From the NCBI GenBank assembly GCA_964652725.1, contig CAZZAU010000001.1, forward strand, positions 1 through 35,109: a stretch of DNA of 35,109 bases. The letters are read 5' to 3'. A program made the translations under genes and the position numbers. This DNA is from an uncultured Dehalococcoidaceae bacterium. Lineage in GTDB: Bacteria; Chloroflexota; Dehalococcoidia; Dehalococcoidales; RBG-16-60-22. The notes beneath the pieces were generated by a model. The model made no database searches. It worked only from the letters and a program-made list of their open reading frames with translations, and was not told the origin of the DNA. The stretch's first letter is position 1; each line of letters opens with the position of its first letter. Shown here in pieces: positions 56-33,979 of the stretch.

Positions 56-96
56 GCGGTCGGGTAATAAGGGGCGACAATATCTATATTAGCAAA

Positions 97-317: not shown

Positions 318-429
318 AGCGGAGCAGCGTCGGGTAAATTAAGGAAAGGCAGCAACTGGCGCTGAAAAAGGCGGAGTGATATGCTATCCTTGGTAGCGGG
401 TAGTGCTGCGCACTGCTTGTGAAGAGAAT

Positions 430-1671
430 ATGCAAAGTGTCAACTCAGCGTCCGAGCCGGCCAGCTTTCTGCTGAGCAGGGTAACCCTGCTTGTGCTGGC
501 CGGAATCTTGCTCGTAGCTGCGTGGAACGGATTGGTGGTCATAGTCATTTTGCTCGGTCTGGCCCTGTCCGCGGCGCTCCTTGCCCGCCTCTGGAGCCGG
601 TTAGCGCTTTCCGGTGTTGGCTGTGAACGGACGTTGAGTGAAGACCACGTCTTCCCCGGCGAGACTATCGAATTGAAGCTGCGGCTCACCAACCGCAAGC
701 TCCTGCCGTTGCCCTGGGTGCGGGCACAGCATTTCGTTCCGCAGCATATGACGGGGGAAGATACGGTCTCCGGAGAGGCTCCGGCCAGAGGCCTTCTGGA
801 GCACAGCGCTTCGCTCTTCTGGTACTCGGCGGTACGCTGGCGCCAGTCTCTGCGTTGTAACCGGAGAGGCTACTATCACCTCGGCGATGTTACCGTTACT
901 TCAGGAGATATCTTCGGCCTGTGCCAGCGCACAGGCGCCTATCCCTCGGCCGACAGTATCACCGTCTACCCGAAAATATACCCCCTGGAGCATCTCGGGC
1001 TGCCGTCCCTGGACCCCCTGGGCGAAAGGAAGGCAGAGAGGCGCATCTTTGAGGACCATACCCGTATCGTCGGAGTGCGGGACTACACCCCCCACGACAG
1101 CCTGCGGCATATCCACTGGAAGGCCAGTGCGCGCCATCAGAACCTGCAGGTAAAGGTGTTTGAACCCACCACGACGTTGAAAGTAGCCCTCCTGCTGGTG
1201 GTGGACAGCTTTGCCGGCGGTGAGCCTGATGATTTTGAGCTCGGTGTGAGCGTAGCCGCCTCCCTGGCCAGCCACGTTATCGAGACCAGGAACCAGGCCG
1301 GGCTGTATGCAAACTCCCGTCTCCCTGTATGGGAGGAAAGAGTGCAGCAGGCTCCGGGCGGAGGTCTCAAGCAACTGGTACACATCCTGGAAGCCCTGGC
1401 CCGCGTGACCTCCCAGCCGAGCGGGCCTTTTGATGCTTTCTTTACGGATATCTGCCGTTCCCTGCCCTGGGGCACCACCTGTGTCTTTATTCTGAATGAG
1501 GTGCCGGAGTATGCAGACCCGCTCCTGCTCCGGTTGAAAGAAAGCGGTTTCAAAACTGTGGTTATGCAAATCGGCAAGAACAAGGAAAACGGTTCTGGGG
1601 CGGTCGGCGCCTGGCACTTCATCGAACGACCGGGGCAGTTTATACAGCACGCTGGAGAGAACGCGTTATGA
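430..1671 (+). CDS. DUF58 domain protein (vWA-like partner of MoxR ATPases)
   Basis: ORF 403-1671. N-terminal hydrophobic helices and the motif VRDYTPHDSLRHIHWKASAR typical of DUF58. ATG at 430 is preferred over GTG at 403. The stop overlaps the next start (ATGA at 1668-1671). Confidence 0.8.
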   Translation: MQSVNSASEPASFLLSRVTLLVLAGILLVAAWNGLVVIVILLGLALSAALLARLWSRLALSGVGCERTLSEDHVFPGETIELKLRLTNRKLLPLPWVRAQHFVPQHMTGEDTVSGEAPARGLLEHSASLFWYSAVRWRQSLRCNRRGYYHLGDVTVTSGDIFGLCQRTGAYPSADSITVYPKIYPLEHLGLPSLDPLGERKAERRIFEDHTRIVGVRDYTPHDSLRHIHWKASARHQNLQVKVFEPTTTLKVALLLVVDSFAGGEPDDFELGVSVAASLASHVIETRNQAGLYANSRLPVWEERVQQAPGGGLKQLVHILEALARVTSQPSGPFDAFFTDICRSLPWGTTCVFILNEVPEYADPLLLRLKESGFKTVVMQIGKNKENGSGAVGAWHFIERPGQFIQHAGENAL

Positions 1672-3044
1672 GAGCAGGGCTGCTGAGAGGCATCCTGACT
1701 GCTTCTATCTTGATAATGGAAGCATCCTGGCTTTTTCTGCTCGTGTACCTGCTCAATGACCGGGGAACAGGCGGAGCCCTGAACATTCCCGGCCTGTTCC
1801 TGGTGTTCTTGCTCGCTTTCGGTGCGAACTGGCCGCTATCCCGGTATGGCTGGCCCCGGGGCTTAAAGGTTGTACTTAACATAATTATCTGGGGGATTGT
1901 CTCTTTGCTGGTCATCAAGTTCCAGATGTACGGGGCCTTCACCCTGGGTGACGTGCGCTGGTTGCAGTCGCTGGGAGAGGCCGTGGCCGGCATATTCCGC
2001 GGCATCAGTCCGGCAGTGGTGGCGCTCATCGGGTGCGCTATACTGTGGTGGTCCGGGCAGAGGCTGGCTTATATGAAGATAGAGTTTAGCACTTCGGTGC
2101 GGGAGTTCCAGTTCGGGTTGCTGGTGGTGCTGCCGCTTCTGTTCGTTGCCGCAGGGCTCGATGTTGACCTCGGTTACGCGGTGCCGGCCGTGCTGGTGTT
2201 CTTCTCTGCGGCGCTGCTTACATTATCGCTGGCGCATGCGCGGGAAAACCATCTTGCGGGTGGCGCGTTCGGCGGCAACTGGCTGGGCATCCTGTTAATG
2301 TGCATTAGCACGGTCCTCATTCTGGGGCTCATTGTCGGTTCCATCATAACGCCCGAACTGCTCCGCATGGCCGCGGCCGGTCTGATATGGCTGTGGAGTA
2401 TCCTGGTGAAAGGAATTGCCTTCATCGCAAGCCTGTTCCCGGCCCCCGATATGCCGGCCCCGGATACCGCGGTCCCGGACGCGGCTCCTGCGCTGCCGCA
2501 GGAGCCGGACTATTCAAAGATATTCGTATTGCCTGAGGTGGTGCGTAATGGTCTGCGTTATGGCTGGTACCTGCTTATGATAGGCTTCTTGCTGGTGTTC
2601 CTGTGGCGTGTCTCGGAGCAGTTCTTCGTCTGGCTGCGGAGAAGCCTGGCTGCAGCGTCCGGCGCCGAGTTCGAGCCGTTGCACGGGGCGTTCGGCGCTG
2701 ACATCCGGGCGCTGCTGGGAGGAGTTTTTGCCTGGTTCGCCGGGTGGCGGAGCCGGTTCAGAAGGCAGGTGGAGACGGAGCCCAGGGAGATTACCTCGGT
2801 GCGCCAGCTTTACCGGCAGCTTCTGCGGTGGGGGGGCAGAGGGGGCCTGCCCAGAGTGGCCAGTCATACCGCTGATGAATACCTGGCCGTCCTGCAGGAG
2901 AGGCTGCCCGCCTACGGGAGCGCCGCTCAATATATTACCGAGTGGTACGTGGTCAGCCGTTACGGTCACGTGGCGCCCTCGGCGGGTGAGATGGAGGAAT
3001 TGAAAAGGAGCTGGCAGCTGCTGAAGCAGCAACGCCTTGCATAA
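1668..3044 (+). CDS. polytopic membrane protein with C-terminal DUF4129-like domain
   Basis: 458-aa ORF with multiple hydrophobic helices, a Pro-rich linker (PAPDMPAPDTAVPD) and one more helix. The soluble tail ADEYLAVLQERLP...YITEWYVVSRYG resembles DUF4129. It sits between the DUF58 and MoxR genes. Confidence 0.65.
   Translation: MRAGLLRGILTASILIMEASWLFLLVYLLNDRGTGGALNIPGLFLVFLLAFGANWPLSRYGWPRGLKVVLNIIIWGIVSLLVIKFQMYGAFTLGDVRWLQSLGEAVAGIFRGISPAVVALIGCAILWWSGQRLAYMKIEFSTSVREFQFGLLVVLPLLFVAAGLDVDLGYAVPAVLVFFSAALLTLSLAHARENHLAGGAFGGNWLGILLMCISTVLILGLIVGSIITPELLRMAAAGLIWLWSILVKGIAFIASLFPAPDMPAPDTAVPDAAPALPQEPDYSKIFVLPEVVRNGLRYGWYLLMIGFLLVFLWRVSEQFFVWLRRSLAAASGAEFEPLHGAFGADIRALLGGVFAWFAGWRSRFRRQVETEPREITSVRQLYRQLLRWGGRGGLPRVASHTADEYLAVLQERLPAYGSAAQYITEWYVVSRYGHVAPSAGEMEELKRSWQLLKQQRLA
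2439..2483 (+). repeat. imperfect 15-nt tandem repeat x3 encoding a P-A-P-D type linker
   Basis: CCGGCCCCCGATATG / CCGGCCCCGGATACC / GCGGTCCCGGACGCG, read directly. It lies in frame inside the 1668-3044 CDS. Confidence 0.6.
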
Positions 3045-3060
3045 GCAACGGAGGTTTATA

Positions 3061-4032
3061 ATGGGGAAAGCATTGCAACCGGTGGATGTTTCCGGGATAG
3101 AGGCGGCTGCCGGCGCCCTGGTGGCGAACATAAACAAGGTTATCGTGGGGAAACGGGATGCCATCCATCTGGTCCTGGTGGCGCTTTTCTGCGAAGGGCA
3201 TGTGTTCATCGAGGATGTGCCCGGCATCGGCAAGACCATGCTGGCCAAATCCACCGCCAGATCGCTCGGCTGCAGTTTCAAACGAATACAGTTCACTCCG
3301 GACCTGCTGCCGTCCGACGTCACCGGCATTTACTACTTTGACCAGAAGAGCGCCGAGTTCCACTTCCGGCCCGGGCCGGTGTTCGCCAATATCGTGCTCG
3401 CCGATGAAATAAACCGGGCCACCCCCCGCACCCAGTCATGCCTGCTGGAGGCGATGCAGGAGCGCCAGGTGACAGTGGACGTCGAGACCATGAGCCTCCC
3501 CCGCCCCTTCATGGTCATCGCCACCCAGAACCCTGTTGAGCTCGAAGGCACGTTTCCGCTGCCGGAAGCCCAGCTTGACCGGTTCCTGCTGCGGGTACGG
3601 CTCGGCTATCCGGATTCCGACGAAGAGGACGCGATACTCACCCGGTTTCAGGAGACCGAGCAGCTGGATAGCCTGGAGCCCGTGGTGCAGGCTCCAGAGC
3701 TGGTTGAATTTCAGAAGCTATGCCGCAGGGTGTACGTGGAAGAATCGGTGCGCAGCTACATCATCGCCATCGTCAGGGCTACCCGGGAGCACAAGGCCGT
3801 CAAGCTGGGGGTCAGCCCGCGGGGCTCGCTCAACCTCTACCTGGCTTCGCAGGCTCTGGCGGCGGTCCGCGGGCGCAACTATGTTACCCCCGATGATGTC
3901 AAACATCTGGCAGCCCCGGTGCTCGCTCACCGCATCATGGTCAGGGCGGAGACGGGCATAAGAGGCCAGTCCGCCGAGCACATTTTGCAGGAGATACTGC
4001 TGACAGTACCGGTGCCCGTGGAAAAAATATAA
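3061..4032 (+). CDS. moxR: MoxR-family AAA+ ATPase
   Basis: Walker A DVPGIGKTMLAK, Walker B IVLADEINRATPRTQS, and TPDLLPSDVTG typical of MoxR. ATG at 3061 is preceded by GGAGG (3050-3054). The ORF opens at 3037. Confidence 0.9.
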   Translation: MGKALQPVDVSGIEAAAGALVANINKVIVGKRDAIHLVLVALFCEGHVFIEDVPGIGKTMLAKSTARSLGCSFKRIQFTPDLLPSDVTGIYYFDQKSAEFHFRPGPVFANIVLADEINRATPRTQSCLLEAMQERQVTVDVETMSLPRPFMVIATQNPVELEGTFPLPEAQLDRFLLRVRLGYPDSDEEDAILTRFQETEQLDSLEPVVQAPELVEFQKLCRRVYVEESVRSYIIAIVRATREHKAVKLGVSPRGSLNLYLASQALAAVRGRNYVTPDDVKHLAAPVLAHRIMVRAETGIRGQSAEHILQEILLTVPVPVEKI

Positions 4033-7586: not shown

Positions 7587-7635
7587 TTTGTTTCTGCAGC
7601 GGGGGAAGAAAGGTGGGAAGAAATGGACGAAACCG

Positions 7636-9023: not shown

Positions 9024-9041
9024 CCTAGCGTTAATAATGGA

Positions 9042-10205: not shown

Positions 10206-10215
10206 CCTGAAAGAG

Positions 10216-14481: not shown

Positions 14482-16294
14482 CGGCGCCGCTATCGTACAG
14501 GCGGGAAAGCCCCTGCTCGCTAAGCAACTGCAGCAGGTCATAGTCCAGCTTCAGAAATCCCCGCCCGCCCGGAAACACGTGGTTCAGGTTATAGTCCCGT
14601 ATCACCAGCAGACCGCCGGCATTTTCGAAATCCTTTTCAATCAGATATCCAATGGATGATTCCCTGGGCAGACCGTCATCGAAGAGATGATTGTAAGGGA
14701 TTTCCACCATAATCCGGCCCCGGTACAGTGATGAGATGGTCCGGGAGGCGGTAACCTCGGAATGGGTAAAGGCAGTCCGGTAGGTGGTACTCTGAACATA
14801 GACGGGACTATCACGGTTGGCATGCGGGCCGGCCACCTGCAGAAATGTCAGAGCACCGGTGATAACCAGGAGCGCGGCGTACTTCCAGACGCCGCCGCGG
14901 AGCGAGTTGACCAGAAGGATAACTCCCACCGCCACCAGACTTCCGAGCAGAATCTGGGAGTAGGCGAGGAAGCGGTCCGGCAAAAGGTCTCCCAGCCGAA
15001 AAGCCCCGCCGGCGAAAGCTACGGCGGTGGCGACAATCCCCGCCGAGGCAAAGCAGAAACGGTACGGGCTTCTCACACCGCGGGAGAGTAAGGCAAGAAT
15101 GCCGATTATGGCGAGGAAGTAGTACAGCAGCAGACCGCTGCGGCTGAGCACCAGTTCCCCGTAGCTGACCGCTCTTGTCAGGTACTGGCTGGTTATCAGC
15201 AGCGCCGATTGCTGCTCCATCTGAAAAGCGTACTTGATGCTCCAGACGATGTGCCTGAACTGGCCGGAGATGTACGCCCAGTAAGCCAGCGGGACGACCG
15301 CAGAGAAAATGACCAGGTAGGCGTTGACCAGAGGTCTTCCGGCGTGAAACAACCATCCGTAGGTCTTCTGTCCCCCCCACGAGGCCAGGAAGATAAGGCA
15401 GATGGCAAATGAGGCCAGGGCATGGGTCATCACGGTGAGCGCCACCAGGGAGAAGGTCAGGGCGGTGAACCTGGCGTCTCGCTTTCCGGAAAAGACCAGA
15501 TAGGTCAGCAAGATGACCAGAGCGATGCCCAGGGTATTGGGTATGGCCCAAAGGCCGTTGTGGATGTACCATCCCGCCGTGCCCACCATCAGCGCGGACA
15601 AAAGACCGACTCGGAAGTCGAACAGGCGCTCGCCGATAACGAAAACGAAAGCCACTATCGCCAGGTAGAAGGTGCCGATGTACAGTATTCCGGCGAACTT
15701 GTAGCTCAGGCCGGTCAGAAGGGAAGCGGTGCCTATGCCGAAAGGCATGACCGGCATATCGGCGTACACGTAGGTGGGCGCAATACGGCCGGTGGCGAGC
15801 ATCTGCATTACCGCCTCGGCGTGCCCCCAGACATCGATGCCGTTCAGGGAGGGAAACATTATCTGAGGCACCCATTGCAAAGCCATAGCCAGCAGCAGTA
15901 TCTTCGCCAGGCAAAAGCGAATATGTGCCCGGCTATCCGGAATGAGCACCGCCTCCAGGGCCAGAAGGGCGGCCAGAACGGCGACGGCAACGAAGTAGGC
16001 AGTGGGTCGAACATAAGACGCTGAGCGGGAGATGAGAAGCAACATACTGTAAGTGAAGATGGTGAAGAAAGCGATGTTGAACAGCAGATATGCCCGCCGA
16101 CCAAGGCGAAAACCGGCAGGCGCCGTTGTGAAGGGGCTCCTGCGGGCAACGGCCAGGTAGGTTACGCACGCCAGCGCCAGCGCTATACCAAACTCGCCGT
16201 ACTTTGCCTGCCACAGTACCAGCAACAGAACGGCACCCAGCGCCAGCCCGGCCAGCGCGCTTACCCTGTCCAGGTTGTCAAACAGTCTGCTCAC
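14435..16294 (-). CDS. large polytopic membrane protein, GT-C-like candidate, with C-terminal soluble domain
   Basis: 619-aa ORF with a GTG start preceded by GGAGA. The first ~500 aa are almost entirely hydrophobic helices; the last ~120 aa are soluble. Loop motif GIDVWGH is shared with the 19741-21204 protein. No family assignment possible without a search. Confidence 0.6.
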   Translation of the reverse strand: MSRLFDNLDRVSALAGLALGAVLLLVLWQAKYGEFGIALALACVTYLAVARRSPFTTAPAGFRLGRRAYLLFNIAFFTIFTYSMLLLISRSASYVRPTAYFVAVAVLAALLALEAVLIPDSRAHIRFCLAKILLLAMALQWVPQIMFPSLNGIDVWGHAEAVMQMLATGRIAPTYVYADMPVMPFGIGTASLLTGLSYKFAGILYIGTFYLAIVAFVFVIGERLFDFRVGLLSALMVGTAGWYIHNGLWAIPNTLGIALVILLTYLVFSGKRDARFTALTFSLVALTVMTHALASFAICLIFLASWGGQKTYGWLFHAGRPLVNAYLVIFSAVVPLAYWAYISGQFRHIVWSIKYAFQMEQQSALLITSQYLTRAVSYGELVLSRSGLLLYYFLAIIGILALLSRGVRSPYRFCFASAGIVATAVAFAGGAFRLGDLLPDRFLAYSQILLGSLVAVGVILLVNSLRGGVWKYAALLVITGALTFLQVAGPHANRDSPVYVQSTTYRTAFTHSEVTASRTISSLYRGRIMVEIPYNHLFDDGLPRESSIGYLIEKDFENAGGLLVIRDYNLNHVFPGGRGFLKLDYDLLQLLSEQGLSRLYDSGAVIAYLSPDRPSPESR

Positions 16295-16328
16295 GGGCGG
16301 TCTCCGGATGACGTCGGGTGAAAGTGCA

Positions 16329-17330
16329 TCACCGCATTTCCTTCCCGCCGGCGCGCCTGCTCCCGGACAGGAGCGACTTCAAAGCATGGTGCGCCCCGGT
16401 CAGGCCGTCGTTGGCCCTACTGCCCAGGAAAGACATCAGATATGACAGCATGTTCCTTACGTCATGGGGGGCCAGGGCTATTGCCCGGACATACTCTCTC
16501 CGGGCGGCAGTGAAATCGCCACGGCTCAGGCAGGCTCTCGCTACCGAGCGGTGAAGGTAGTGACGCGCCTTCCTGTCCAGGTGCGCATATAAGGCCTCTA
16601 TCCCCTGCTCCTCTATTTGCTCGAGCAGGCGGGCCGATGCCCTTCCGCTGGCTATACGCAGGGCGAGAAGATGGTAGAGAGCGCCTTCCCGCCTCTTTTG
16701 CGCCTGGACACTCTCCCGGTGTCTTCGTTTCCAGTACAGCGGTTCGGTCAGATTGGCCACCGTGTAGCGGCCGGCAATTCTGAGCCACAGCTCGTAGTCC
16801 TGCGAGTAGCGAAAGAGCTCATGGTACGGGCCCACCTGGTCCAGAACGCTCTTGCGCAACATCACCGAGCCGTGAACGAATTGATTGTGCATCCTGAGCT
16901 TGCGTTCGGGGTACGGTGAGGGCGTCTCCCGGCGCAGGACCCGCCCATCCTCGTCGATGATGCAGACTCCCGTACCCAGCAGCCCTACCTCGGGGTGCCG
17001 TTCCAGATAGGTGACTTGTTTGGCAAAGCGGGCGGGGAGAGAGACATCGTCCGCGTCCTGCCTGGCGATGTAGTGGCCGGAGGCCAGGCCGAGGGCGACG
17101 TTGAGCGAGCGGGTGAGGCCAATGTTGCGCCCGTTGCTGACGGACCTTATTCTGGGGTCGGCGTAGCTCCTGATAATGGCTGAGGAACCGTCTGTGGAGC
17201 CGTCATCGACGATGATGAATTCGAAGTCGCCGAAGGTCTGCCCGAGCACGCTTTCCATCGCCCGGCCGAGATAGCGTTCCCCATTGTGGACCGCCATAAT
17301 GACGCTGATTCCCGGCCGGTCTTGTGTCAT
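16329..17330 (-). CDS. GT2 glycosyltransferase with C-terminal TPR-like tail
   Basis: ISVIMAVHNGERYLGRAMESVLGQTF, FEFIIVDDGSTDGS, ARQDADDVS. The C-terminal region RACLSRGDFTAARREYVRAIALAPHD resembles a TPR. Confidence 0.8.
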   Translation of the reverse strand: MTQDRPGISVIMAVHNGERYLGRAMESVLGQTFGDFEFIIVDDGSTDGSSAIIRSYADPRIRSVSNGRNIGLTRSLNVALGLASGHYIARQDADDVSLPARFAKQVTYLERHPEVGLLGTGVCIIDEDGRVLRRETPSPYPERKLRMHNQFVHGSVMLRKSVLDQVGPYHELFRYSQDYELWLRIAGRYTVANLTEPLYWKRRHRESVQAQKRREGALYHLLALRIASGRASARLLEQIEEQGIEALYAHLDRKARHYLHRSVARACLSRGDFTAARREYVRAIALAPHDVRNMLSYLMSFLGSRANDGLTGAHHALKSLLSGSRRAGGKEMR

Positions 17331-17334
17331 AGCG

Positions 17335-18192
17335 CTAGCCCTTCCGTGCCACGTAAAGCATCATATGTCCGGCCAGCCGGCGCAGGACTGCGGACTCCAC
17401 CAGAGCGCCAAACAGGCGGCCCGGCCCGCTAATGGCAGGACGTCCGGCCGGTGGAGCAGCCGTTTCCGTCGCTTTTCCGACCGGTGCACTCCCGGAGATG
17501 AAACGAGACAGGCCCAGGAAGAGGGGCAATTCGTCCTTGAGTCCCTTCCTAGCATTATAGGGATTGAGACTGATGACCGTAAAGCCGGATGCCCGCAGCA
17601 GATGCTTGAACTCGCGCACCGTGAACGCATACTGATAGAACCCGGGGCGCCGGTTTCCGCGGTAGAGGCCGAGACCTCCCTTCAGCCGGCGCAGCCAGTT
17701 GTAATAGGGCACGGTAGCCAGAAGCACGCCCCCCTTTTTCAGGACGCGGCTGGCTTCCGTCAGCGCCTTTTCGGGGCCGTCCTCGAAGTGCTCGACCACC
17801 CCAAGGGACGGGATAGCGTCGAAATGGCCGTCCGGACAGGGCAACTCCAGCACGTTGCCCACCTTAACCGGCAAGTCAGGGATGGCTTCCCTGACCTGTC
17901 TGACCACCTCCCGGCTTATATCGATTCCCTCGACGTCATACCCCTTCTCTCTGAGAATGGCCACGTACTGTCCCAGTCCGCACCCGGCTTCCAGGATTTT
18001 ACCGGACGGAGGCAGATGACCCAGCAGGACCGGAAGCAGGCGCCGGTCGCTGCGGGCCCACTCGACCCACCGGGCGACATCAAGGTCCTGCCAGTGTCGC
18101 CCCCAGTGGTCTGCATCGGCCGGCCGGCCGTAGACCGCCAGGCGCTGCCCGGTTTTTGTCCAGCGACTCAAGAGGCACCCCCCGGGCGGCAC
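17335..18192 (-). CDS. class I SAM-dependent methyltransferase
   Basis: ILEAGCGLGQY, DVEGIDIS, FDAIPSLGVVEHFEDG, LKKGGVLLATVP. The only start at the ORF's 5' end is GTG at 18192. Confidence 0.7.
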   Translation of the reverse strand: MPPGGCLLSRWTKTGQRLAVYGRPADADHWGRHWQDLDVARWVEWARSDRRLLPVLLGHLPPSGKILEAGCGLGQYVAILREKGYDVEGIDISREVVRQVREAIPDLPVKVGNVLELPCPDGHFDAIPSLGVVEHFEDGPEKALTEASRVLKKGGVLLATVPYYNWLRRLKGGLGLYRGNRRPGFYQYAFTVREFKHLLRASGFTVISLNPYNARKGLKDELPLFLGLSRFISGSAPVGKATETAAPPAGRPAISGPGRLFGALVESAVLRRLAGHMMLYVARKG

Positions 18193-18302
18193 GCGGGCAG
18201 CAGAGAGATGAACAGTTCTTCTTTTCTCATTGCGCAGCCGCCAACCGGGAAGGATATCATTCCAGCTCTCCCGTCATCCCTGTTCCGCGTAGAGAAACCA
18301 TG

Positions 18303-19574
18303 CTACAGGCTGCGGTAACAGAACCCAGCCTTTTCCGCCTCCCCTCTGTCGAAGAAGCGCCGCACGTCCACCAGCACCGGCGGGTGTCTTTGCAGCGCCC
18401 TGAGGTCGTCAAGGCTGAACCGGCGGAATGCGGTATGTCCCACGGCCAGTATGATGGCGTCCACCCTGTCCATTCTCAGTGTTTCCATGTCAGCACGGTC
18501 GATTAGCTCTATGCGGAACTGCCCCTCCAGCTCCGGGATGGGCACCAGAGGTTCATAGCCCAGGACGTGTATGCGGTATTCCTCCAGCTTCTTTATGATG
18601 CCGCCCACCGGGCTTTCCCTGGTATCGGCAACATCTTCCTTATAAGTCAGACCGAGAACAAGCACCCGTGAACCCTTGATTACTTTGCCCACCTCGTTCA
18701 ATGCTTTTATGGTCAGCTCGGCGACGTACTCTGGCATGAAGTCGTTTATCGCCCTTCCCGCCAGTATAACCCGCGAATGGTAGCCCAGCTCCCGGGCACG
18801 GTACACCAGGTAATGCGGGTCTACGGGGATGCAGTGTCCCCCCACCAGCCCCGGAGAGTACCGGTGGAAGTTCCACTTGGTGGCCGCGGCCTCCAGCACC
18901 GCCGCGCTGTCCAGCCCCAGCTTGTGGAAGATAATGGTCAGCTCATTGACCAGGGCAATGTTCAGGTCCCGCTGGATATTCTCGATTACCTTGGCCGCCT
19001 CGGCGGTCTTAAGATTGGGCGCTACGTGTATGTGGGGTGTCACCTTGCGGTACAGCTCCGCCACGGCAATAGTGGTTTCCCGGTCCATACCGGCCACTAC
19101 CTTGGTAATCCTGTCCACCGTGTGTTCTGTATCGCCGGGGTTGATTCTTTCCGGGGAATAGGCTACCTTGAAATCAGGCCCCGCTCTGAAACCTGATGCT
19201 TCTTCCAGAATGGGCTGAAGCACTTCTTCCGTGACTCCCGGATATACGGTGGATTCCAGGATTACCATTGCTCCCTTGCCCATATTGCGCCCGATAGTCC
19301 GGGCAGCGTCACGCAGGTGTGAAAGGTCCGGCTCGGAGGAGGTGGTAAGCGGGGTAGGGACGCAGATGATAATGAAACCGGCCTCTTTCATAAGTGAAGG
19401 GTCACCGGTGAAGATGATGGAGTGCTGCGCGGAGTTCCGGAGCCGTTCCAGCTTCCTTGTGTCCGTATCATAACCGATGACCGGCAGGTACGCAGCGAAT
19501 GCTTCCGCGAGTGGCAACCCCACATAACCCATGCCCACCACGCAGACGGTGGTACCTGTTGATTCTGGTTTCAT
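18303..19574 (-). CDS. nucleotide-sugar dehydrogenase (UDP-glucose/GDP-mannose dehydrogenase family)
   Basis: N-terminal Rossmann VCVVGMGYVGLPLAEAF. Catalytic-Cys region VGGHCIPVDP. C-terminal UDP-binding-like domain VLGLTYKEDVADTRESP. Confidence 0.88.
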   Translation of the reverse strand: MKPESTGTTVCVVGMGYVGLPLAEAFAAYLPVIGYDTDTRKLERLRNSAQHSIIFTGDPSLMKEAGFIIICVPTPLTTSSEPDLSHLRDAARTIGRNMGKGAMVILESTVYPGVTEEVLQPILEEASGFRAGPDFKVAYSPERINPGDTEHTVDRITKVVAGMDRETTIAVAELYRKVTPHIHVAPNLKTAEAAKVIENIQRDLNIALVNELTIIFHKLGLDSAAVLEAAATKWNFHRYSPGLVGGHCIPVDPHYLVYRARELGYHSRVILAGRAINDFMPEYVAELTIKALNEVGKVIKGSRVLVLGLTYKEDVADTRESPVGGIIKKLEEYRIHVLGYEPLVPIPELEGQFRIELIDRADMETLRMDRVDAIILAVGHTAFRRFSLDDLRALQRHPPVLVDVRRFFDRGEAEKAGFCYRSL

Positions 19575-19740: not shown

Positions 19741-21204
19741 GTGAATCTGCACCGGTATGAGAAACTGGCACCCCTGGCCCTGGTTCCGGTGCTGGCCCTG
19801 GCCTACTATGTGGCGTACATTCCGCACCTCACCTACCCCTATCCCGTGCACATAGACGAGTGGGTGCATCTGGCCTTCTCCAGGGCGATGCTCGAGGCGG
19901 GCAGCACTTCCTTCACCGACCCCTTTCTGGGCCAGTCCGCCGTTGGAGCGGGGAGTCCCCACCTTGAGGCCGGCTTTCACCTGTTCTGGGGGGTGTTCCA
20001 GCGTGTCAGCGGACTTTCCTGGATGGCTATCTACCGTTACTTTCCGGGTATTATCTTCGTACTGACGGTGGCCTCGGTGTACGTGCTGGGGCGGCGGAAA
20101 GGCTTCGGGTGGGAAGCCGCCTTTTTCACCGCTTTGATACCCACCACCGTGGGGATTCTAGGCCCCGGCTTCCTGGTGCCCCTGGCTACAGGTCTGTTCT
20201 TCACCCCCCTCGCTCTTTTCCTGGCTTTTTACCTGAGAAGCCCCCTGGCCTGGATAACCCTCTTCATCTTTATGAGCCTGCTGCTGGTAATGCACGCGCC
20301 TTCGGCGGTCTTCATCGCCCTGATTATTGGTCCATACGCGTTGCTGAATCTGAAAGGAGATTTCAGGCGCGCCCTGGGCCTCGGCCTGGCGCTGCTGGTC
20401 CCTTTTCTGCTACCTTTCCCCTGGATTTTCGATCTGCTGCTCCCCACGGCAAAGAGCGTCCTCGTCCCGCACCCTCTTACTCCCTACGTGGACTTTCCGC
20501 GGGTGCTCCGGGAGTACGGTTACCTGCCGGCAACGTTCTGCCTGGTGGGAACCGCCGTTTTGTTCCTGAAGGGTGGCAGGGAGAATACCGCGCTGGTGCT
20601 GGGTCTGCTGGGGGTGCTGCTGGTGCTGGTGGCGCGCTACACCTTCAACTACGGCATACACATTCTCTACGCTCGCGGGCTTATGTTCATGATGATGATG
20701 GTGGCAGTGGTGGGCGGGGCCGGTCTGGCGACATTCCGGAAACTCGATGCGCCGTTTCTTTCATCCTTCAGAGAAGGAAAACCCGTTCTGGCCAGGGCCA
20801 CCGGTGTGCTGTTGTTACTGGCTGTTTCGGCAGCGACGCTGGCCGTTGCGCTGCCGCAGCGCCTGAACACGCCCTACTATCATATGATCGACCACCAGGA
20901 GTATCAGGACTTCGTCTGGATGCGTGATAACCTGGGCGGCTCCTACCGGAAGGCCATACTGGACCCCTGGAAGGCAACCGCATTCACCGCCATCACCGGC
21001 AAGTTCGCCTATACCAGGATTCACATGGCGCCTACGCCCGTAGACCAGAAAGCCTACGCTTTCCTCGACAGCGGCTGCGAAGATACCGGGTTCCTGAGGC
21101 AGAACGGCATCTCCATCATATACAATCGCTCCGGGTGCCGGAATCCCGACCTTGTGGAGGTGAAGGAGAACATCTACCTCCTGAAGGAAGAAGGCCCGGA
21201 GTGA
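19741..21204 (+). CDS. polytopic membrane protein, GT-C-like candidate (paralog of 14435-16294)
   Basis: 487-aa ORF with a GTG start after AAGAGG. Many hydrophobic helices and a soluble C-terminal ~110 aa. An acidic/His motif HIDEWVH follows the first helix. Confidence 0.6.
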   Translation: MNLHRYEKLAPLALVPVLALAYYVAYIPHLTYPYPVHIDEWVHLAFSRAMLEAGSTSFTDPFLGQSAVGAGSPHLEAGFHLFWGVFQRVSGLSWMAIYRYFPGIIFVLTVASVYVLGRRKGFGWEAAFFTALIPTTVGILGPGFLVPLATGLFFTPLALFLAFYLRSPLAWITLFIFMSLLLVMHAPSAVFIALIIGPYALLNLKGDFRRALGLGLALLVPFLLPFPWIFDLLLPTAKSVLVPHPLTPYVDFPRVLREYGYLPATFCLVGTAVLFLKGGRENTALVLGLLGVLLVLVARYTFNYGIHILYARGLMFMMMMVAVVGGAGLATFRKLDAPFLSSFREGKPVLARATGVLLLLAVSAATLAVALPQRLNTPYYHMIDHQEYQDFVWMRDNLGGSYRKAILDPWKATAFTAITGKFAYTRIHMAPTPVDQKAYAFLDSGCEDTGFLRQNGISIIYNRSGCRNPDLVEVKENIYLLKEEGPE

Positions 21205-21226
21205 ACTGAGCAAACGTGCTTCTTTG

Positions 21227-21235
21227 TGGTATAAT
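21227..21235 (+). promoter_or_regulatory. extended -10 element (TGgTATAAT) upstream of the GtrB-like GT2
   Basis: TGGTATAAT read at 21227-21235 in the 71-bp gap. The -35 is poor (TGAGCA at 17 nt). Confidence 0.4.
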
Positions 21236-21275
21236 TCGGGCACGCAAGTCTGCCCAGGGAAAAGCAGGACGGGAG

Positions 21276-22190
21276 ATGAACAAACAACACGAAACGGGAC
21301 AAAAAGTCCTGGTGGCAATGCCCGCCTACAACGAGGAGAAATATATCGGCAGCCTGGTAGTGCAGGCCCGGCAGTATACGGACGAGGTGCTGGTGGTGGA
21401 TGACGGCAGCACAGACCGTACTGCCCGCGTTGCCGAGCTGGCGGGCGCCACCGTCATCAGACACGGCAAGAACCGGGGCTATGGGGCCAGCATCCAGAGC
21501 ATACTGACCGAGGCCAGAAAAAGGGCTCCGGACGTGCTGGTGCTGATGGACGCCGACGGCCAGCATGACCCCGGACAGATAAGCGCGCTCATCGGGGCGA
21601 TACGCAGCGGCAATGACCTGGCCGTGGGCTACCGCGTCATCGGCCGCGGGGAGATTCCGGCGCACCGGCGAATCGGGCAGAAGGTGCTGACCTTCTTCAG
21701 CGGTGTGCTCTCCAGGAGCGGTCTGTCCGATACCGAGTGCGGCTTCCGCGCTTTCTCGGGCAAGGCCCTGGGGGTGCTTCAGCCAGAGGAAAAGGGCATG
21801 GCAGTGTCCGCAGAAACCATCTCCGAGGCGGCAAGGAAGGGACTCAAAATTACGCAGGTGCCCGTCTCCGCCATCTACACCGGTGATGGTTCCACCTTCA
21901 ATCCCGTCAGACACGGCGTAGACGTGCTAAACCGTGTGCTGGTGATGATTTCCGAGCGGAGGCCACTGCTCTTTTTCGGGGTCGTGGGAGCCGTGCTCAT
22001 CGCTCTGGGGCTGGCAGCCGGGGTAGTGGTGGTGCGGTTGCTGTTTGCCTCAGAGGTCCTGCATGTGGGCACCGCCCTGCTGTCCATGATGCTCATCACC
22101 ATCGGTGTGTTGAGCATCTTCGCCGGGATAATACTGAATGTGCTGGTGAAGCGCATAAAAGAAGCAGGCCTGGCCGATACCCCGGACTGA
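21276..22190 (+). CDS. GT2 polyprenyl-phosphate glycosyltransferase, GtrB/CsbB/ArnC-like, with two C-terminal TM helices
   Basis: VLVAMPAYNEEKYIG, EVLVVDDGSTDRT, GKNRGYGASIQ, VLMDADGQHDP, DTECGFRAF. Two C-terminal helices follow: LLFFGVVGAVLIALGLAAGVVVV and LLSMMLITIGVLSIFAGIILNVL. ATG at 21276 chosen; the ORF opens at 21216. Confidence 0.8.
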   Translation: MNKQHETGQKVLVAMPAYNEEKYIGSLVVQARQYTDEVLVVDDGSTDRTARVAELAGATVIRHGKNRGYGASIQSILTEARKRAPDVLVLMDADGQHDPGQISALIGAIRSGNDLAVGYRVIGRGEIPAHRRIGQKVLTFFSGVLSRSGLSDTECGFRAFSGKALGVLQPEEKGMAVSAETISEAARKGLKITQVPVSAIYTGDGSTFNPVRHGVDVLNRVLVMISERRPLLFFGVVGAVLIALGLAAGVVVVRLLFASEVLHVGTALLSMMLITIGVLSIFAGIILNVLVKRIKEAGLADTPD

Positions 22191-22208: not shown

Positions 22209-23051
22209 TCACTCCACCCGCACCTGGAGAAAGAGCTGCCGGTATGCAGCGGTCTGTCCCTGCTTGGAAAGGACAAACTCGACCTTCTGACTGCCGGAGC
22301 GCTCCGGGGTAAAGCTTATCTCCTGCCGCCATTCTTCGCCGTGTCCCAGATTGATAGGCCCGGCCTGCCACCGGGCTTCTCCCTCCAGCTTCATTTCCAC
22401 CCGGTACTGCTCTGTCCGCCTTTCATGATTGATGATGACCAGTACCAAGTCAGCCGTATCGCCGGTATCAAGGGCGAGAGGGTAGTCTATCATGGCCCCG
22501 CCCGGTCCCAGCAGGTAGAACTCGGTGAACCGCTCGGACGTTTTGGGGGTAACCACATAATAGACCAGGCTGGCCGCGGCGGCCAGCAGTACCAGTGCTA
22601 GGAGTCCGGTCAGGACGCGGTCCGTTAGGCCATACCGTTGCCAGAAGGTCAGATGTGGGGTGAAGGCTGGGCAGTATCTCTCCGTTTCCTGAAGTCGCCC
22701 CCGCCGGTACCAGGCTACGGCTGCTCCCGCGGTTACCAGCAGCGCCATCGCCGTTGCCAGGGGCAGCAAACTGAGGCCCCACGGGGAAAAATTGAGCGCC
22801 AGGCCGGCCAGGGCTGTTGCCACGACACTCAGCACCGGGACCATCCCTGCGCGTTCGATGCTGGTGAGAGACGTTCTCCCGGGGAAGATGGCCAGAGTGA
22901 TCAAATAGCCCGGATAGAGCAGTACCAGGGGCAATCCCAGGGCGGTTCTCAGGACGCCGGAGGGAACCACGGCGATGAGAAGCAGTGAGATGAGCGCCGC
23001 GATGCCTGCCAGCAAAATGTCCGCATTGGCTTTGAGTCCGGTGAGTCGCAT
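22209..23051 (-). CDS. DUF1616-like membrane protein (4 TM helices plus C-terminal beta-rich domain)
   Basis: This is the C-terminal 280 codons of the 837-aa ORF, starting at the ATG at 23049-23051. DILLAGIAALISLLL...GLPLVLLYPGYLITLAIFPGR...SIERAGM...LALNFSPWGLSL matches my memory of the DUF1616 N-terminal pattern. After a fourth helix comes a soluble domain, TEFYLLGPGG...LVLVIINHERRTEQYRVEMKL. Confidence 0.6.
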   Translation of the reverse strand: MRLTGLKANADILLAGIAALISLLLIAVVPSGVLRTALGLPLVLLYPGYLITLAIFPGRTSLTSIERAGMVPVLSVVATALAGLALNFSPWGLSLLPLATAMALLVTAGAAVAWYRRGRLQETERYCPAFTPHLTFWQRYGLTDRVLTGLLALVLLAAAASLVYYVVTPKTSERFTEFYLLGPGGAMIDYPLALDTGDTADLVLVIINHERRTEQYRVEMKLEGEARWQAGPINLGHGEEWRQEISFTPERSGSQKVEFVLSKQGQTAAYRQLFLQVRVE

Positions 23052-23065
23052 CACGAATACTACTG

Positions 23066-23094
23066 AGTATAGCACAGACGAGGGCACTTGCCGA
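23066..23094 (-). promoter_or_regulatory. weak candidate promoter for the DUF1616-like gene
   Basis: Minus strand: TCGGCA (23089-23094), 17 nt, TATACT (23066-23071). The leader would be very short. Confidence 0.3.
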
Positions 23095-23165: not shown

Positions 23166-24110
23166 ATGAAATATTTTGTGACCGGGGGCGCGGGCTTCAT
23201 CGGGAGCCACCTGGTAGATAGTCTGGCGGAGCGGGGTCAAGTGACCGTCTACGACAATCTGAGCTCCGGCAGACGGGAGCACCTGAAGCATCATCTGCGC
23301 AGCGAAGGGTTCCGGTTTGTGGAGGCCGACCTTCTGGAGACGGTGCTCCTGCGACGCGCGATGAGAGGGAGCGAGGTGGTCTTCCATATGGCGGCTAATC
23401 CGGAAGTGAAAGACGCTGCCGGCAACACGGAGCTGGACTTGAAGCAGGGCGCCATCGCTACCTACAATGTACTCGAAGCGATGCGACTTAACGGTGCCCG
23501 GGAAATCATCTTCGCCTCCAGCAGCACCGTATACGGAGACACGGGAGGGCAGGTCGTTGCCGAGGATTTCGGGCCGCTTCAACCCATATCTCTGTACGGA
23601 GCCAGCAAGCTGGCCGCAGAAGGTCTGATAACCGCTTTCTGCCACCTTTTTAATATGAAGGCCTGGGTTTTCCGCTTCGCCAACGTGGTGGGGAGCAGGG
23701 CGACCCACGGGGTGCTCTTCGATTTCATACGTAAGCTGAGACGGGACCCGGAGCGACTGGAAGTGCTGGGCGACGGCCGTCAGGAAAAGCCATATATCCA
23801 CGTAAAGGACTGCGTGGCCGGTATGCTGCATGGCTTCAAGCACGGGCGGGGGGACGTCAATGTCTATAATCTGGGCAACGCTGACGCGGTCAGCGTTACG
23901 GCTATTGCCCGTATGGTTGCGGCGCAAATGAAGCTGCCGGAGGTCGTACTGAGCTATACAGGAGGTGAGCGCGGCTGGCCCGGCGATGTACCCCGGGTGA
24001 GGCTGGACGTTTCCCGGATGGAAGGGCTGGGCTGGCAGCCGGAACGCAGCTCGGCGGAAGCAGTGCGCGCGGCGATAGCGGAACTCCTGGCAGAAACGGG
24101 GCAGAGGTAA
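23166..24110 (+). CDS. NAD-dependent nucleotide-sugar epimerase/dehydratase (extended SDR)
   Basis: KYFVTGGAGFIGSHLV (GxxGxxG) and catalytic YGASKLAAE (YxxxK). Confidence 0.85.
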   Translation: MKYFVTGGAGFIGSHLVDSLAERGQVTVYDNLSSGRREHLKHHLRSEGFRFVEADLLETVLLRRAMRGSEVVFHMAANPEVKDAAGNTELDLKQGAIATYNVLEAMRLNGAREIIFASSSTVYGDTGGQVVAEDFGPLQPISLYGASKLAAEGLITAFCHLFNMKAWVFRFANVVGSRATHGVLFDFIRKLRRDPERLEVLGDGRQEKPYIHVKDCVAGMLHGFKHGRGDVNVYNLGNADAVSVTAIARMVAAQMKLPEVVLSYTGGERGWPGDVPRVRLDVSRMEGLGWQPERSSAEAVRAAIAELLAETGQR

Positions 24111-24818
24111 ATGCAGGCGGTTATCCTGGCGGGAGGTCTGGGGACGAGGCTGGGCAGGCTCACCGCCAGTATGCCCAAGGTGATGGTGCCTATCCGGCGT
24201 AAGCCGTTCCTTTATTATCTGCTGCGCCTGCTCAAGAGCCGGGGGATGAAACACATCGTGCTGTGTACCGGCTATCTGGGGCATGTGGTGCGGGAATATT
24301 TCGGCGATGGCGGGACGCTGGGTCTCAGCATAAAGTACAGCGAGGAGAGAGAACAGTTGCTGGGCACCGGAGGTGCTCTGAAGCAGACCCGAGCCCTCCT
24401 GGATGAAAGCTTCTGGGTGATAAATGGAGATACCTACTTGCCAGCCGATTACGAGAGGGCTGGCGGGGTTTTCCTGGGTCAGGGACTCAAGGCGTTGATG
24501 ATGGTCTATGACAACGGGATAGATACGGGGGTGAAGAACAACGTGGCGCTGGACGGAAGGCAGAGAGTGGTCAGGTATGACAAAAAGGATAGCAGCCCAG
24601 AGATGAAGTATGTGGAAGCCGGGGTGCTGGCATTGCGGCGTGAGACGCTGGACATTATCGATGAAGGGCAGCCAAGCTCTCTGGAAGAGTCGATTTACCA
24701 GAGCTTGATAGGAGAGGGGCAAATGGGGGCTTTGGTAACAAAGGAAAGGTTCTATGACATCGGCACGCCCGAGCAGAGCCGGGCGTTTGAGGCCTTTATC
24801 GGAGAGGCGGTAGAATGA
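24111..24818 (+). CDS. hddC: sugar-1-phosphate nucleotidyltransferase, D-glycero-D-manno-heptose 1-phosphate guanylyltransferase-like
   Basis: MQAVILAGGLGTRLGRLT...PKVMVPIRRKPFLYYLL, GTGGAL, INGDTY. About 235 aa, and adjacent to hddA-like and gmhA-like genes. Confidence 0.7.
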   Translation: MQAVILAGGLGTRLGRLTASMPKVMVPIRRKPFLYYLLRLLKSRGMKHIVLCTGYLGHVVREYFGDGGTLGLSIKYSEEREQLLGTGGALKQTRALLDESFWVINGDTYLPADYERAGGVFLGQGLKALMMVYDNGIDTGVKNNVALDGRQRVVRYDKKDSSPEMKYVEAGVLALRRETLDIIDEGQPSSLEESIYQSLIGEGQMGALVTKERFYDIGTPEQSRAFEAFIGEAVE

Positions 24819-25795
24819 TTATTACCCGCACCCCTTTTCGTATCAGCTTCGCCGGCGGCGGCACGGACTTCCGCGAGTTCTACCGCCAACAGCCCGGAGC
24901 GGTGGTCAGCACAGCGATAACCAGATATATGTACATCATCGTCAACCGGCGCTTCACTGACGCCATCCGGGTGAGCTACTACGCCAAAACAGAAATCGTG
25001 GACCGCGTGGAAGACATCCAGCACCCCATCGTCAGGGAGGCGCTCAAGCTGGTGGGCATAAGCAAGGGGATAGAGATCGCCTCGGTGGCGGACATTCATG
25101 GCGGGTCCGGCCTGGGATCGTCGGGGAGCTTTACCGTGGGCCTGCTCAATGCCCTGTATGCCTACCAGGGCACCCTCAGGTCCGCGGAGGAACTTGCCCG
25201 TGAAGCCTGCCGTATCGAGATAGACATCCGCGGCGAACCCATCGGCAAGCAGGACCAGTATATCGCCGCCCATGGCGGCTTTCGTTTTCTGCAGTTCAAC
25301 CCGGACGAGACCGTGTTCACCCAACCCATCTTATGGTCGTCACAGAACAAGGAGGAACTGCTCCAGAACCTGCTGCTCCTTTACACCGGGGAGGTGCGGG
25401 ATGCCAGCAGTATCCTGAGAGAGCAGCGTGACAGCATTAACCAAACGGAGAAAATGGATTGCCTGTGCCGTCTGCGCGACATCGCTGTGCAGTTGCGCGG
25501 TAGCCTGAACGATAATGCCGGGCCCGACGTCATGGGGGAGGCGTTGCATCAGGGCTGGTTGCTCAAGAAGCAGCTGGCCAGCGCGGTCAGCAACAACAGG
25601 ATAGACAGGTACTACCAGCGGGCGCTTGACGCGGGCGCGCTCGGAGGCAAGGTGCTGGGGGCGGGCGGAGGCGGTTTCCTGCTGCTATACTGCCCGCAGG
25701 CAAAGCAAGCACAGATAAAAACAGCGCTGAGCGACTTGCGGCCCCTGGAATTTTCCTTTGAGCCTGAGGGCAGCAAGATCATCTACGTAATCTAA
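24815..25795 (+). CDS. hddA: GHMP kinase, D-glycero-D-manno-heptose 7-phosphate kinase-like
   Basis: MIITRTPFRISFAGGGTDFREFY N-terminus is typical of HddA. GHMP motif GGSGLGSSGSF. Start overlaps the hddC stop (ATGA at 24815-24818). Confidence 0.7.
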   Translation: MIITRTPFRISFAGGGTDFREFYRQQPGAVVSTAITRYMYIIVNRRFTDAIRVSYYAKTEIVDRVEDIQHPIVREALKLVGISKGIEIASVADIHGGSGLGSSGSFTVGLLNALYAYQGTLRSAEELAREACRIEIDIRGEPIGKQDQYIAAHGGFRFLQFNPDETVFTQPILWSSQNKEELLQNLLLLYTGEVRDASSILREQRDSINQTEKMDCLCRLRDIAVQLRGSLNDNAGPDVMGEALHQGWLLKKQLASAVSNNRIDRYYQRALDAGALGGKVLGAGGGGFLLLYCPQAKQAQIKTALSDLRPLEFSFEPEGSKIIYVI

Positions 25796-25811
25796 CGCGG
25801 GAGGTGCGCTG

Positions 25812-26387
25812 GTGAGCTCTGGAGGGGACTACATAGAAGGATACCTGGACAGGGTGCGTTCCTGCCTAAATGAGATATCAGAACAGGACATAGCGGGTAT
25901 AGTTGACATAATATTTCAAGCCTGGCGGGACAATAAATGCGTGTTCATCATAGGCAACGGCGGCAGCGCCACCACGGCGGCGCATTTCGCCCGCGACCTG
26001 AACATCGGCACGGCGACGGCGGGCAAGAAGCGCCTCAAAGCATTGAGCCTGGCGGACAATATCGCCACGGTGACGGCGCTGGCGAACGACGTGGGCTACC
26101 AGCATATTTTCACGAAGCAACTGATGGGAAGTCTGGACGCCGGGGACGTGGTCATAGGCATCAGCGCTTCGGGCAACTCGCCGAACCTGCTTGAAGGCAT
26201 CGAGTACGCCAGAAGCCAGGGGGTGGTGACGGCGGGGTTCCTCGGGTTCGGTGGCGGCAGGATGAAAGGACTGGTAGACAGGGCAATCGTCCTTTCCTGC
26301 AAAGAGTACGGGCCGGTGGAGGATGCCCACCTAATCCTCGAGCATATCATCTGCGCCCTGGTGAAAGAAAGAATCGCCGGTGATTAG
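25812..26387 (+). CDS. gmhA: SIS-domain phosphoheptose isomerase
   Basis: FIIGNGGSATTAAHFARDL and ISASGNSPN. About 190 aa. GTG start with GGAGG 7 nt upstream. Confidence 0.75.
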   Translation: MSSGGDYIEGYLDRVRSCLNEISEQDIAGIVDIIFQAWRDNKCVFIIGNGGSATTAAHFARDLNIGTATAGKKRLKALSLADNIATVTALANDVGYQHIFTKQLMGSLDAGDVVIGISASGNSPNLLEGIEYARSQGVVTAGFLGFGGGRMKGLVDRAIVLSCKEYGPVEDAHLILEHIICALVKERIAGD

Positions 26388-33962: not shown

Positions 33963-33979
33963 GAAGTTAAGATTAAGAA

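Follow-up and report, generated by a model that had tools for sequence, protein, structure and literature searches.

A DUF1616 membrane protein gene linked to a polyprenyl-phosphate sugar synthase and an unannotated GT-C family in Dehalococcoidia: a candidate partner in surface glycosylation

Positions 1 to 35,109 of contig CAZZAU010000001.1 (assembly GCA_964652725.1, an uncultured Dehalococcoidaceae bacterium) were analysed as one stretch of DNA, hereafter the window, in which a large glycan cluster spans the genes from 4253 to 33962 and a gene of the uncharacterised DUF1616 family lies at 22209..23051 on the minus strand. The cluster holds glycosyltransferases of families 2 and 4 (GT2 and GT4), several methyltransferases, a B12-radical-SAM enzyme, a UDP-glucose dehydrogenase, an aminotransferase, a deacetylase-like protein and a FemAB/GNAT-like protein, and this domain content bears out the glycan-cluster setting that an earlier note on this DNA had assigned to the DUF1616 gene. 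Within the cluster, the segment 19741-23051 packs end to end a protein with a predicted glycosyltransferase C (GT-C) fold, a lipid-sugar synthase and DUF1616, and we propose that DUF1616 probably helps cell-surface glycosylation.

The DUF1616 gene (PF07760, COG4743, arCOG02884-type) encodes 280 amino acids plus a stop, with the ATG at 23051 opening the minus-strand frame and the stop codon ending at 22209, and all peptides quoted from the protein in the earlier note are present in this translation. The mechanically called open reading frame (ORF) reaches 24722; because the extra part runs antisense to the epimerase and NTP-transferase genes, two well-supported genes of the plus strand, and the starts of the homologues align with the ATG at 23051, the start was placed there. 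Family membership, which the earlier note had suggested, was confirmed by a Pfam PF07760 match above the gathering threshold across the whole domain (E 1.9e-57; 195.2 bits versus a cut-off of 31.6; residues 17-277 on profile positions 5-306 of 307), while NCBIfam has no model for DUF1616 and none for the 487-aa GT-C described below. At the sequence level the window protein is divergent, sharing 56-61% identity with its two closest relatives and ∼40% or less with all others. The gap of 18 nt to the convergent GT2, which ends at 22190, and the divergence from the epimerase operon, whose first gene starts at 23166 after 114 nt, are both as had been described; that DUF1616 is the sole gene on its strand holds for the minus strand from 19.7 to 34 kb but not beyond, since 14435-19574 is minus-strand as well. 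A sigma-70-like promoter match (TCGGCA-17-TG-TATACT, 23066..23094, minus strand) is situated ∼15 nt upstream of the ATG, from which a very short leader and monocistronic transcription would follow, and a second such match faces the epimerase, each being a match to the consensus only. The window gene is a genuine DUF1616 of the Chloroflexota clade, a divergent member of a known uncharacterised family.

Convergent with DUF1616, the GT2 gene (21216..22190, plus strand, its start possibly at ATG 21276) encodes a protein with two C-terminal transmembrane (TM) helices, for which the best NCBIfam matches were AglJ, PpgS, dolichyl-phosphate (Dol-P)-hexose transferase and ArnC, all below the equivalog cut-offs, and the PDB sequence matches were DPMS (3e-14) and ArnC. 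By these affinities it belongs to the polyprenyl-phosphate sugar synthase class (GtrB/AglJ/DPMS/ArnC). A tblastn search of this GT2 against phages, aimed at harvesting GtrA sequences, gave just distant, unannotated matches. The gene before it (19741..21204, plus strand) encodes a 487-aa multi-pass membrane protein without a match in Pfam, NCBIfam or the PDB, the last searched with both the protein and its profile. Its well-conserved family comprises >800 homologues, the 120 best listed being 55-61% identical, and nearly every homologue with a name comes from Chloroflexota or Dehalococcoidales. When an AlphaFold2 (AF2) model of this protein was compared by Foldseek, 25 of the 25 best matches were GT-C enzymes (STT3/AglB/PglB, AftA, ALG3, DPY19 and ArnT; TM-score 0.35-0.58, top E 2e-5), and an invariant H-x-D-x-W (H37-x-D39-x-W41) in the first loop is consistent with a GT-C catalytic loop. 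As the model matches GT-C enzymes exclusively, the protein looks like a member of an unannotated GT-C family found mainly in Chloroflexota. Elsewhere in the cluster, a 619-aa protein (14435-16294, minus strand) predicted to have ∼13 TM helices, with a soluble domain at its C-terminus, has no Pfam or NCBIfam match and shares a short IP..P....ID.W.H motif with the 487-aa GT-C; hhalign against the GT-C profile gave just a 41-column motif match (P 0.07), which is not significant and was rejected as evidence of homology. This protein may represent another enzyme of GT-C-like or polymerase-like type.

An AF2 model of the window DUF1616, built on 42 homologues, reached a pLDDT of 90.6 and placed TM helices at residues 10-28, 32-55, 64-87, 95-118 and 142-167, the second of them kinked at P47-G48-Y49, followed by a seven-stranded beta domain at 177-280. 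The beta-patterned soluble domain of the earlier note was thereby recovered, whereas its count of four preceding helices gave way to five. By model and alignment, the protein divides into an N-module of TM1-TM4 (aa 1-118; 22698..23051, minus strand) with the conserved core R35, P47-G48-Y49, E66-R67 and N87; an Arg-rich linker (YRRGR...), predicted to be cytoplasmic by the positive-inside rule, plus TM5 (aa 119-170; 22542..22697, minus strand); and a predicted extracytoplasmic, CARDB-like immunoglobulin (Ig) domain of seven strands (aa 171-280; 22212..22541, minus strand) with invariant T176-E177-F178 and N208-x-E210. Across 42 sequences including the window copy, P47, G48, Y49, P57, R67, T176, E177, F178, L181, N208 and E210 were invariant, and the family motifs are located as PGY in TM2, ER ahead of TM3, TEF after TM5 and NxE in the Ig domain. 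Foldseek comparison of the whole chain with the PDB gave the CARDB domain of PF1109 (2kl6/3idu, E 2e-7) as the best match, and PDB sequence searches with the DUF1616 profile found no solved relative. Matches to MFS_1 in the TM region of some members were weak and mostly sub-threshold, and were judged to be hydrophobic bias. TM2-TM5 also recurrently matched, mostly sub-threshold, Pfam DUF6541 over its initial ∼110 of 646 positions, an uncharacterised family for which no literature was found (window copy, P0002, P0026, P0099, P0103 and P0136); by these sequence matches the membrane module may be a remote kin of DUF6541.

In the predicted topology the chain starts on the inside, crosses the membrane with TM1-TM4, returns to the cytoplasm for the Arg-rich linker and leaves through TM5 to the Ig domain outside. 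The Ig domain is predicted to be outside the cell because the positive-inside rule agrees with the N-glycosylation of the homologous domain in HVO_2173, the DUF1616 protein of Haloferax volcanii, for which four AglB-dependent N-glycosites were reported (PMC8241124). One of these sites is non-canonical and located in the peptide LVRGEPASLVLGVGNQE, and the best ungapped placement of LVRGEPASLVLGVGNQE puts its sole Asn on the invariant N208 column (N-x-E) in 42 of the 42 aligned members. A glycosite on this invariant Asn would place the Ig domain within reach of a GT-C active site.

DUF1616 is a large family, with 4578 clusters at E ≤ 1e-3 in a full scan of 1.84 billion representatives, and 590 of the first 600 pattern matches in one-genome-per-species GTDB contigs encode a relative. 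When the 80 best matches of this species-level survey were classified, ∼51 were bacterial, mostly Dehalococcoidia and Desulfotomaculia/Peptococcaceae/Syntrophomonadaceae-type Bacillota, and the archaeal carriers were Methanosarcinales, Methanothrix, Bathyarchaeia and Halobacteriota. The view of DUF1616 as mainly archaeal therefore stands as history, COG4743 having been listed as a euryarchaeal signature protein with a homologue noted in Dehalococcoides (PMC1852104), but is by now just half true. The family is known from 293 archaeal genomes (PMC6393860) and, with the Dehalococcoides homologue and annotations in bacterial metagenome-assembled genomes, is itself not new. In a neighbor-joining tree the window copy groups with the Chloroflexota members, on a long branch; together with the mainly Chloroflexota homologues of the 487-aa GT-C, this makes an origin of the contig in that phylum most likely. 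Members longer than the 280-aa core are mostly tandem arrays of either DUF1616 module (e.g. A-A-A-AB or AB-B-B-B), one giant member carries VanZ/CarboxypepD_reg/CARDB, and no enzyme fusion was found among the checked proteins exceeding the core. The membrane module occurs in two to four tandem copies within single proteins, which suggests that it may work as an oligomer. Several Methanosarcinales (L043, L068 and L072) have two full-length DUF1616 paralogues <10 kb apart, beside secreted, sequon-rich, surface-protein-like genes.

Conserved gene linkage between DUF1616 and the GT-C was observed by anchoring on the latter in a metagenome scan of 80 loci, complemented with three long contigs (L084-L086), and looking for DUF1616-family genes within 1.5 kb. 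Such genes were found at 54 of the 80 GT-C loci, and at 27 of the 34 loci (79%) with at least 1.5 kb on both flanks; the linkage survived when redundant loci were merged, both at 80% identity (35 of 52 clusters) and at 70% (9 of 13). Among the 27 well-flanked positives, 6 were full-length, 4 had TM5 plus the Ig domain only and 17 the membrane core only, and in four of the seven well-flanked exceptions AglB was located directly upstream of the GT-C. On the long contigs, L084 has DUF1616, an epimerase and the GT-C on one strand, L085 has the GT-C convergent with a DUF1616 fragment gene, and in L086 the GT-C directly follows an STT3/AglB homologue. The stand-alone halves are recognisable members of the family: the mini-DUF1616 proteins (∼110 aa, membrane core) match PF07760 at 45-53 bits over profile positions 15-121 and retain R35, PG[YF], ER and N87 with three clear TM helices, and the TM5-plus-Ig proteins, that is, the C-terminal halves, match at 86-132 bits. 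The mini-DUF1616 genes lie 10-40 bp upstream of the GT-C in divergent orientation, usually followed by a reductase homologue (e.g. L087:6481-6816 and L090:1112-1462, both minus strand). Stand-alone halves and tandem arrays together indicate that the DUF1616 family is modular, and a polyprenyl-phosphate sugar synthase, the unannotated GT-C and a polyprenyl-reductase homologue are its conserved partners in the Chloroflexota clade. In addition, STT3/AglB-type homologues were seen directly beside the GT-C at L086:4209-6977, L113, L126, L129, L133, L153 and L157, on contigs that appear to be Chloroflexota, a hint that these bacteria might N-glycosylate in the archaeal manner; a literature search found no paper on an oligosaccharyltransferase in Dehalococcoidia.

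A second survey was anchored on DUF1616 itself, in which the ORFs within 7 kb of the gene were clustered in 83 loci (29 archaeal, 28 Chloroflexota and 20 Bacillota among them) and then searched with hidden Markov models (HMMs). An Rce1-like/CPBP protease gene was found directly downstream on the same strand in 41 of the 83 loci by clustering and 42 by HMM, comprising 16 of 20 Bacillota, 23 of 29 archaeal and 2 of 28 Chloroflexota loci, and an ∼89-aa Thr-rich protein with two TM helices was encoded nearby in 33 loci by clustering and 36 by HMM. GtrB-class GT2 genes occurred near DUF1616 in ∼24 loci of both domains, and geranylgeranyl-reductase homologues (TIGR02032, above cut-off) in 22 loci (HMM E < 1e-6), mainly bacterial. 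In bacteria as well as archaea, GT2 density fell ∼6-fold with distance, from 8.6 per 100 kb in the first 1 kb around DUF1616 to ∼1.5 further out. For CPBP it was 24.6 per 100 kb within 1 kb versus <2 beyond, and this distance decay supports a real linkage of both to DUF1616. By inference, the GT2, reductase and CPBP neighbours would share a theme of isoprenoid-linked substrates. In Bathyarchaeia a single same-strand array unites two GT4 genes with those of GT2, DUF1616, CPBP and the small protein, and in Methanosarcinales secreted, sequon-rich, surface-protein-like genes lie near DUF1616, amounting to 17 of the 29 loci. When the 139 neighbour ORFs of 26 Chloroflexota loci were tallied by Pfam family, GT2 came first (7 ORFs), followed by epimerases, histidine phosphatases, Laminin_G_3 and methyltransferases (4 each) and Wzx-like proteins and NTP-transferases (3 each), and in the best genome match (L004) DUF1616 is divergent from a GT2-GT4-GT4-dehydratase operon, much as in the window. 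AglB/STT3 was beside DUF1616 in just 2 of the 83 loci. As for the ∼89-aa protein, its Thr-rich N-terminus (MISTVTTTTVTT...) and two TM helices belong to no Pfam family, it comes after the DUF1616-CPBP pair in both Archaea and Bacillota (e.g. L001:10092-10361 and 35 more loci), and it might serve as substrate of a protease or as target of O-glycosylation.

Putting these neighbourhoods together, we tentatively favour, at a little short of even chances, DUF1616 as a non-catalytic partner of the GT-C step in polyprenyl-phosphate-sugar surface glycosylation, because a synthase and a GT-C as conserved partners follow the gene logic of three-component systems, which combine synthase, flippase and GT-C; the glycosylated invariant Asn of HVO_2173 fits such nearness to a GT-C active site. 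On this proposal, polyprenyl phosphate would be charged with a sugar by the GT2 on the cytoplasmic side, and the resulting lipid-linked sugar would serve the unannotated GT-C as donor for modifying a surface glycan or glycoprotein on the outer side of the membrane. The conserved membrane module of DUF1616 may act on this donor, by translocating it or by offering it to the GT-C, and the Ig-like module may dock extracytoplasmically on the GT-C or its acceptor. Family membership, fold, neighbour classes and conserved gene linkage are what we observed; a physical partnership, the membrane topology and a donor-handling or docking activity are what we infer from them.

Several observations weigh against this proposal. 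The tightest partners of DUF1616 family-wide are the CPBP protease and the small Thr-rich protein rather than the GT-C, GT2 is nearby in only about a quarter of the DUF1616 loci, and the GT-C linkage, probed with the 487-aa family and one AglB, was seen only in Chloroflexota and two unclassified or other bacterial loci, with none among the 29 archaeal ones. In the window the CPBP and small-protein HMMs had no match, the downstream neighbour of DUF1616 being the convergent GT2, and because DUF1616 is opposite in strand to the GT-C/GT2 pair and has a promoter-like site of its own, co-regulation is not supported. Structurally, the AF2 model of the GT-C is only moderately confident (pLDDT 64), the DUF1616 membrane module had no match to a solved structure (all Foldseek matches in the PDB falling in the Ig domain) or to a transporter family, and GtrA was not matched in Pfam by the window DUF1616 (E ≤ 1) or by five mini-DUF1616 proteins (E ≤ 0.1). 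All functional support comes from genomic context, as no experimental work on the function of any DUF1616 member was found in the literature. The earlier note named chain-length control, an adaptor or acceptor recognition as candidate roles. Its suggestion of a link to the membrane step of glycosylation was supported statistically by the GT2 enrichment and the 79% GT-C linkage and weakened by the commonest family-wide neighbours, CPBP and the small membrane protein; likewise, the neighbourhoods of homologues did reveal an association with glycosylation genes, which for GT2 extends over bacteria and archaea but for the GT-C does not include the archaeal loci.

The best-surviving alternative, which we consider unlikely, takes DUF1616 as a structural protein, either an S-layer-like membrane anchor or a part of putative machinery for secretion or membrane remodelling, in which the Ig domain would form or hold part of the surface layer together with MoxR AAA+, vWA/DUF58 and DUF4350, and glycan genes would be nearby merely since surface proteins are glycosylated. 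It follows Makarova, Galperin and Koonin (2015), who by gene neighbourhoods placed arCOG02884/pfam07760 in such a system with DUF4350 (arCOG01314), a MoxR ATPase and vWA (PMC5898192, section 3.2, Table 2), a label repeated in PMC6393860. The window does contain a DUF58/DUF4129/MoxR AAA+ (AAA_3) operon (403..4032, plus strand) where the glycan cluster begins, which may link the window distantly to that neighbourhood, yet it is 18 kb from DUF1616 and DUF4350 was not detected in the window. MoxR within 7 kb of DUF1616 was found in L027, L046, L083 and L045, the last with DUF58 and MoxR directly adjacent, which is just 4 of the 83 loci. The sequon-rich neighbours in Methanosarcinales agree with a surface layer, and members with tandem Ig domains or CARDB/CarboxypepD_reg extensions resemble surface stalks, whereas the Ig-less three-TM mini-genes fixed beside the GT-C and the polyprenyl reductase homologue, as well as the conserved intramembrane PG[YF] and ER, are left unexplained.

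Rather improbable, in our estimate, is the sub-hypothesis that the membrane module is specifically a polyprenyl-phosphate-sugar flippase, occupying the GtrA/AglR slot of a three-component system. That slot is filled elsewhere by unrelated and biochemically unproven families (GtrA, SMR, MATE and the Wzx-like AglR; PMC11127046; PMC3871713), and here the synthase and GT-C are adjacent while no Wzx, Wzy, ABC exporter, MATE, SMR or GtrA was recognised among the 31 window genes, with no unassigned hydrophobic ORF remaining. The mini form is GtrA-sized, the two- to four-fold tandem repeats recall the evolution of small transporters, and a conserved Arg marks both membrane boundaries (R35 and R67). 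The mini form has, however, just three clear TM helices, no sequence or structural likeness to any transporter was detected once the MFS_1 matches are set aside, a flippase gene could lie in another part of the genome, and the invariant extracytoplasmic TEF and NxE would have no explanation.

We see little probability in the idea that the core function of DUF1616 lies in a module with CPBP, a glutamic-type intramembrane protease, and the small Thr-rich protein, serving for example sorting, processing or immunity, with the window copy an orphan paralogue that came to lie among glycan genes by chance. The immediate downstream position of CPBP in most Bacillota and archaeal loci, its steep decay with distance and the small protein in 36 loci speak for it, as does a resemblance of CPBP to Mrt/myxosortase-type sorting proteases, weak and below cut-offs. 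In the clade of the window, though, CPBP is nearly absent (the 2 of 28 loci above) and GT2, GT-C and reductase are kept, and the Bathyarchaeia array joins both contexts, so the two are not exclusive. That DUF1616 takes no part in the pathway and is itself one of its substrates, as a glycosylated protein of the cell surface, is suggested by the four glycosites of HVO_2173 but is very unlikely, as an invariant membrane core, an Ig-less mini-gene and GT-C synteny across sequences down to 55% identity would not be expected of a substrate.

A bolder form of the partnership, to which we give only a slim chance, would make the three- to four-helix module a new cross-domain family that moves polyprenyl- or dolichyl-phosphate monosaccharides across the membrane or hands them to the GT-C, acting as an oligomer with the Ig domain docked on the GT-C or oligosaccharyltransferase, near enough for sequon-free Asn glycosylation in Haloferax. 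If this were true, the Dol-P-sugar flippase or donor-delivery factor that has long been missing from archaea and S-layer-bearing bacteria would have a candidate in DUF1616.

Beyond the three-gene segment, the operon divergent from DUF1616 (23166..26387, plus strand) encodes an SDR epimerase, an NTP-transferase (HddC-like), a GHMP kinase (HddA-like) and an SIS isomerase (GmhA-like), with GT4 genes next; this sugar-nucleotide set weakly resembles a GDP-heptose pathway, all its NCBIfam heptose-pathway matches being below cut-offs. A B12-binding radical SAM enzyme (5856-7586, plus strand) followed by several class I methyltransferases (7513-10812) among the glycosyltransferases suggests unusual C- or O-methylated sugars. 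At the contig start a tRNA-Ser(CGA) is encoded (96-184, minus strand). At the other end, 377 stop-free codons (33977-35107, plus strand; start MRVLMLSYDK...) end within two bases of the window 3′ end and look GT4-like by eye only, and a 213-aa minus-strand ORF (34082-34723) is probably the antisense shadow of this frame.

With respect to the searchable literature, three findings are new, namely that DUF1616 is tightly linked to a hitherto hidden GT-C family, that its family is built from two modules and includes mini-genes standing alone, and that a non-canonical N-glycosite maps onto an invariant Asn. DUF1616/COG4743 is among the most widespread uncharacterised archaeal membrane families and now has a concrete, testable set of partners; if the link is functional, it would add a component to the donor transfer or delivery step of GT-C glycosylation. 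It would then also bear on how Dehalococcoidia, which are not known to have peptidoglycan, build their surface glycans.

Compared with its own family, the window copy has the same 4+1 TM plus Ig-like architecture and all invariant residues of DUF1616/PF07760/COG4743 (e.g. MMP0360, HVO_2173 and PAB1055), but differs from typical archaeal and Bacillota members in being a long-branch sequence of the Chloroflexota clade and, by HMM, in missing both partners of the DUF1616-CPBP-small-protein module. The Ig domain matches CARDB of PF1109 from Pyrococcus furiosus with a TM-score of 0.68-0.73 on target, although identity is ∼15%, Pfam CARDB is not matched and TEF and NxE are specific to DUF1616. With the MoxR-vWA-DUF4350 system of Makarova et al. 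the window shares the MoxR-DUF58 operon, but at a distance and with DUF4350 undetected. GtrA-like proteins (PF04138) are small, with four TM helices and ∼120 aa, and are encoded next to a polyprenyl-phosphate sugar synthase and a GT-C; the DUF1616 N-module, with 118 aa and four TM helices, resembles them without being homologous, and the extracytoplasmic Ig domain predicted for the window DUF1616 sets it apart from the known flippase candidates. In the reviewed three-component systems, factors moving or delivering the donor for the GT-C were not biochemically demonstrated (PMC11127046). These systems (GtrA/GtrB/Gtr*, CsbB/GtcA/YfhO, ArnC/ArnEF/ArnT and Citrobacter ORF15/ORF14/ORF12) likewise combine a synthase GT2 and a GT-C with a further small membrane protein, whereas in the window the third gene is not GtrA, SMR, MATE or Wzx and would be a putative third component. 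AglD, AglR and AglS of Haloferax volcanii are a Dol-P-mannose synthase, a flippase-associated protein and a GT-C-like mannosyltransferase, respectively (PMC3871713). Although the host of the window is bacterial and a homologue of the Wzx-like AglR is absent from the window, the same logic is seen in both, namely an AglJ/AglD-class synthase of Dol-P- or polyprenyl-phosphate-hexose together with a transferase that acts outside the cell on surface glycoproteins in Haloferax and is predicted to act outside the membrane here.

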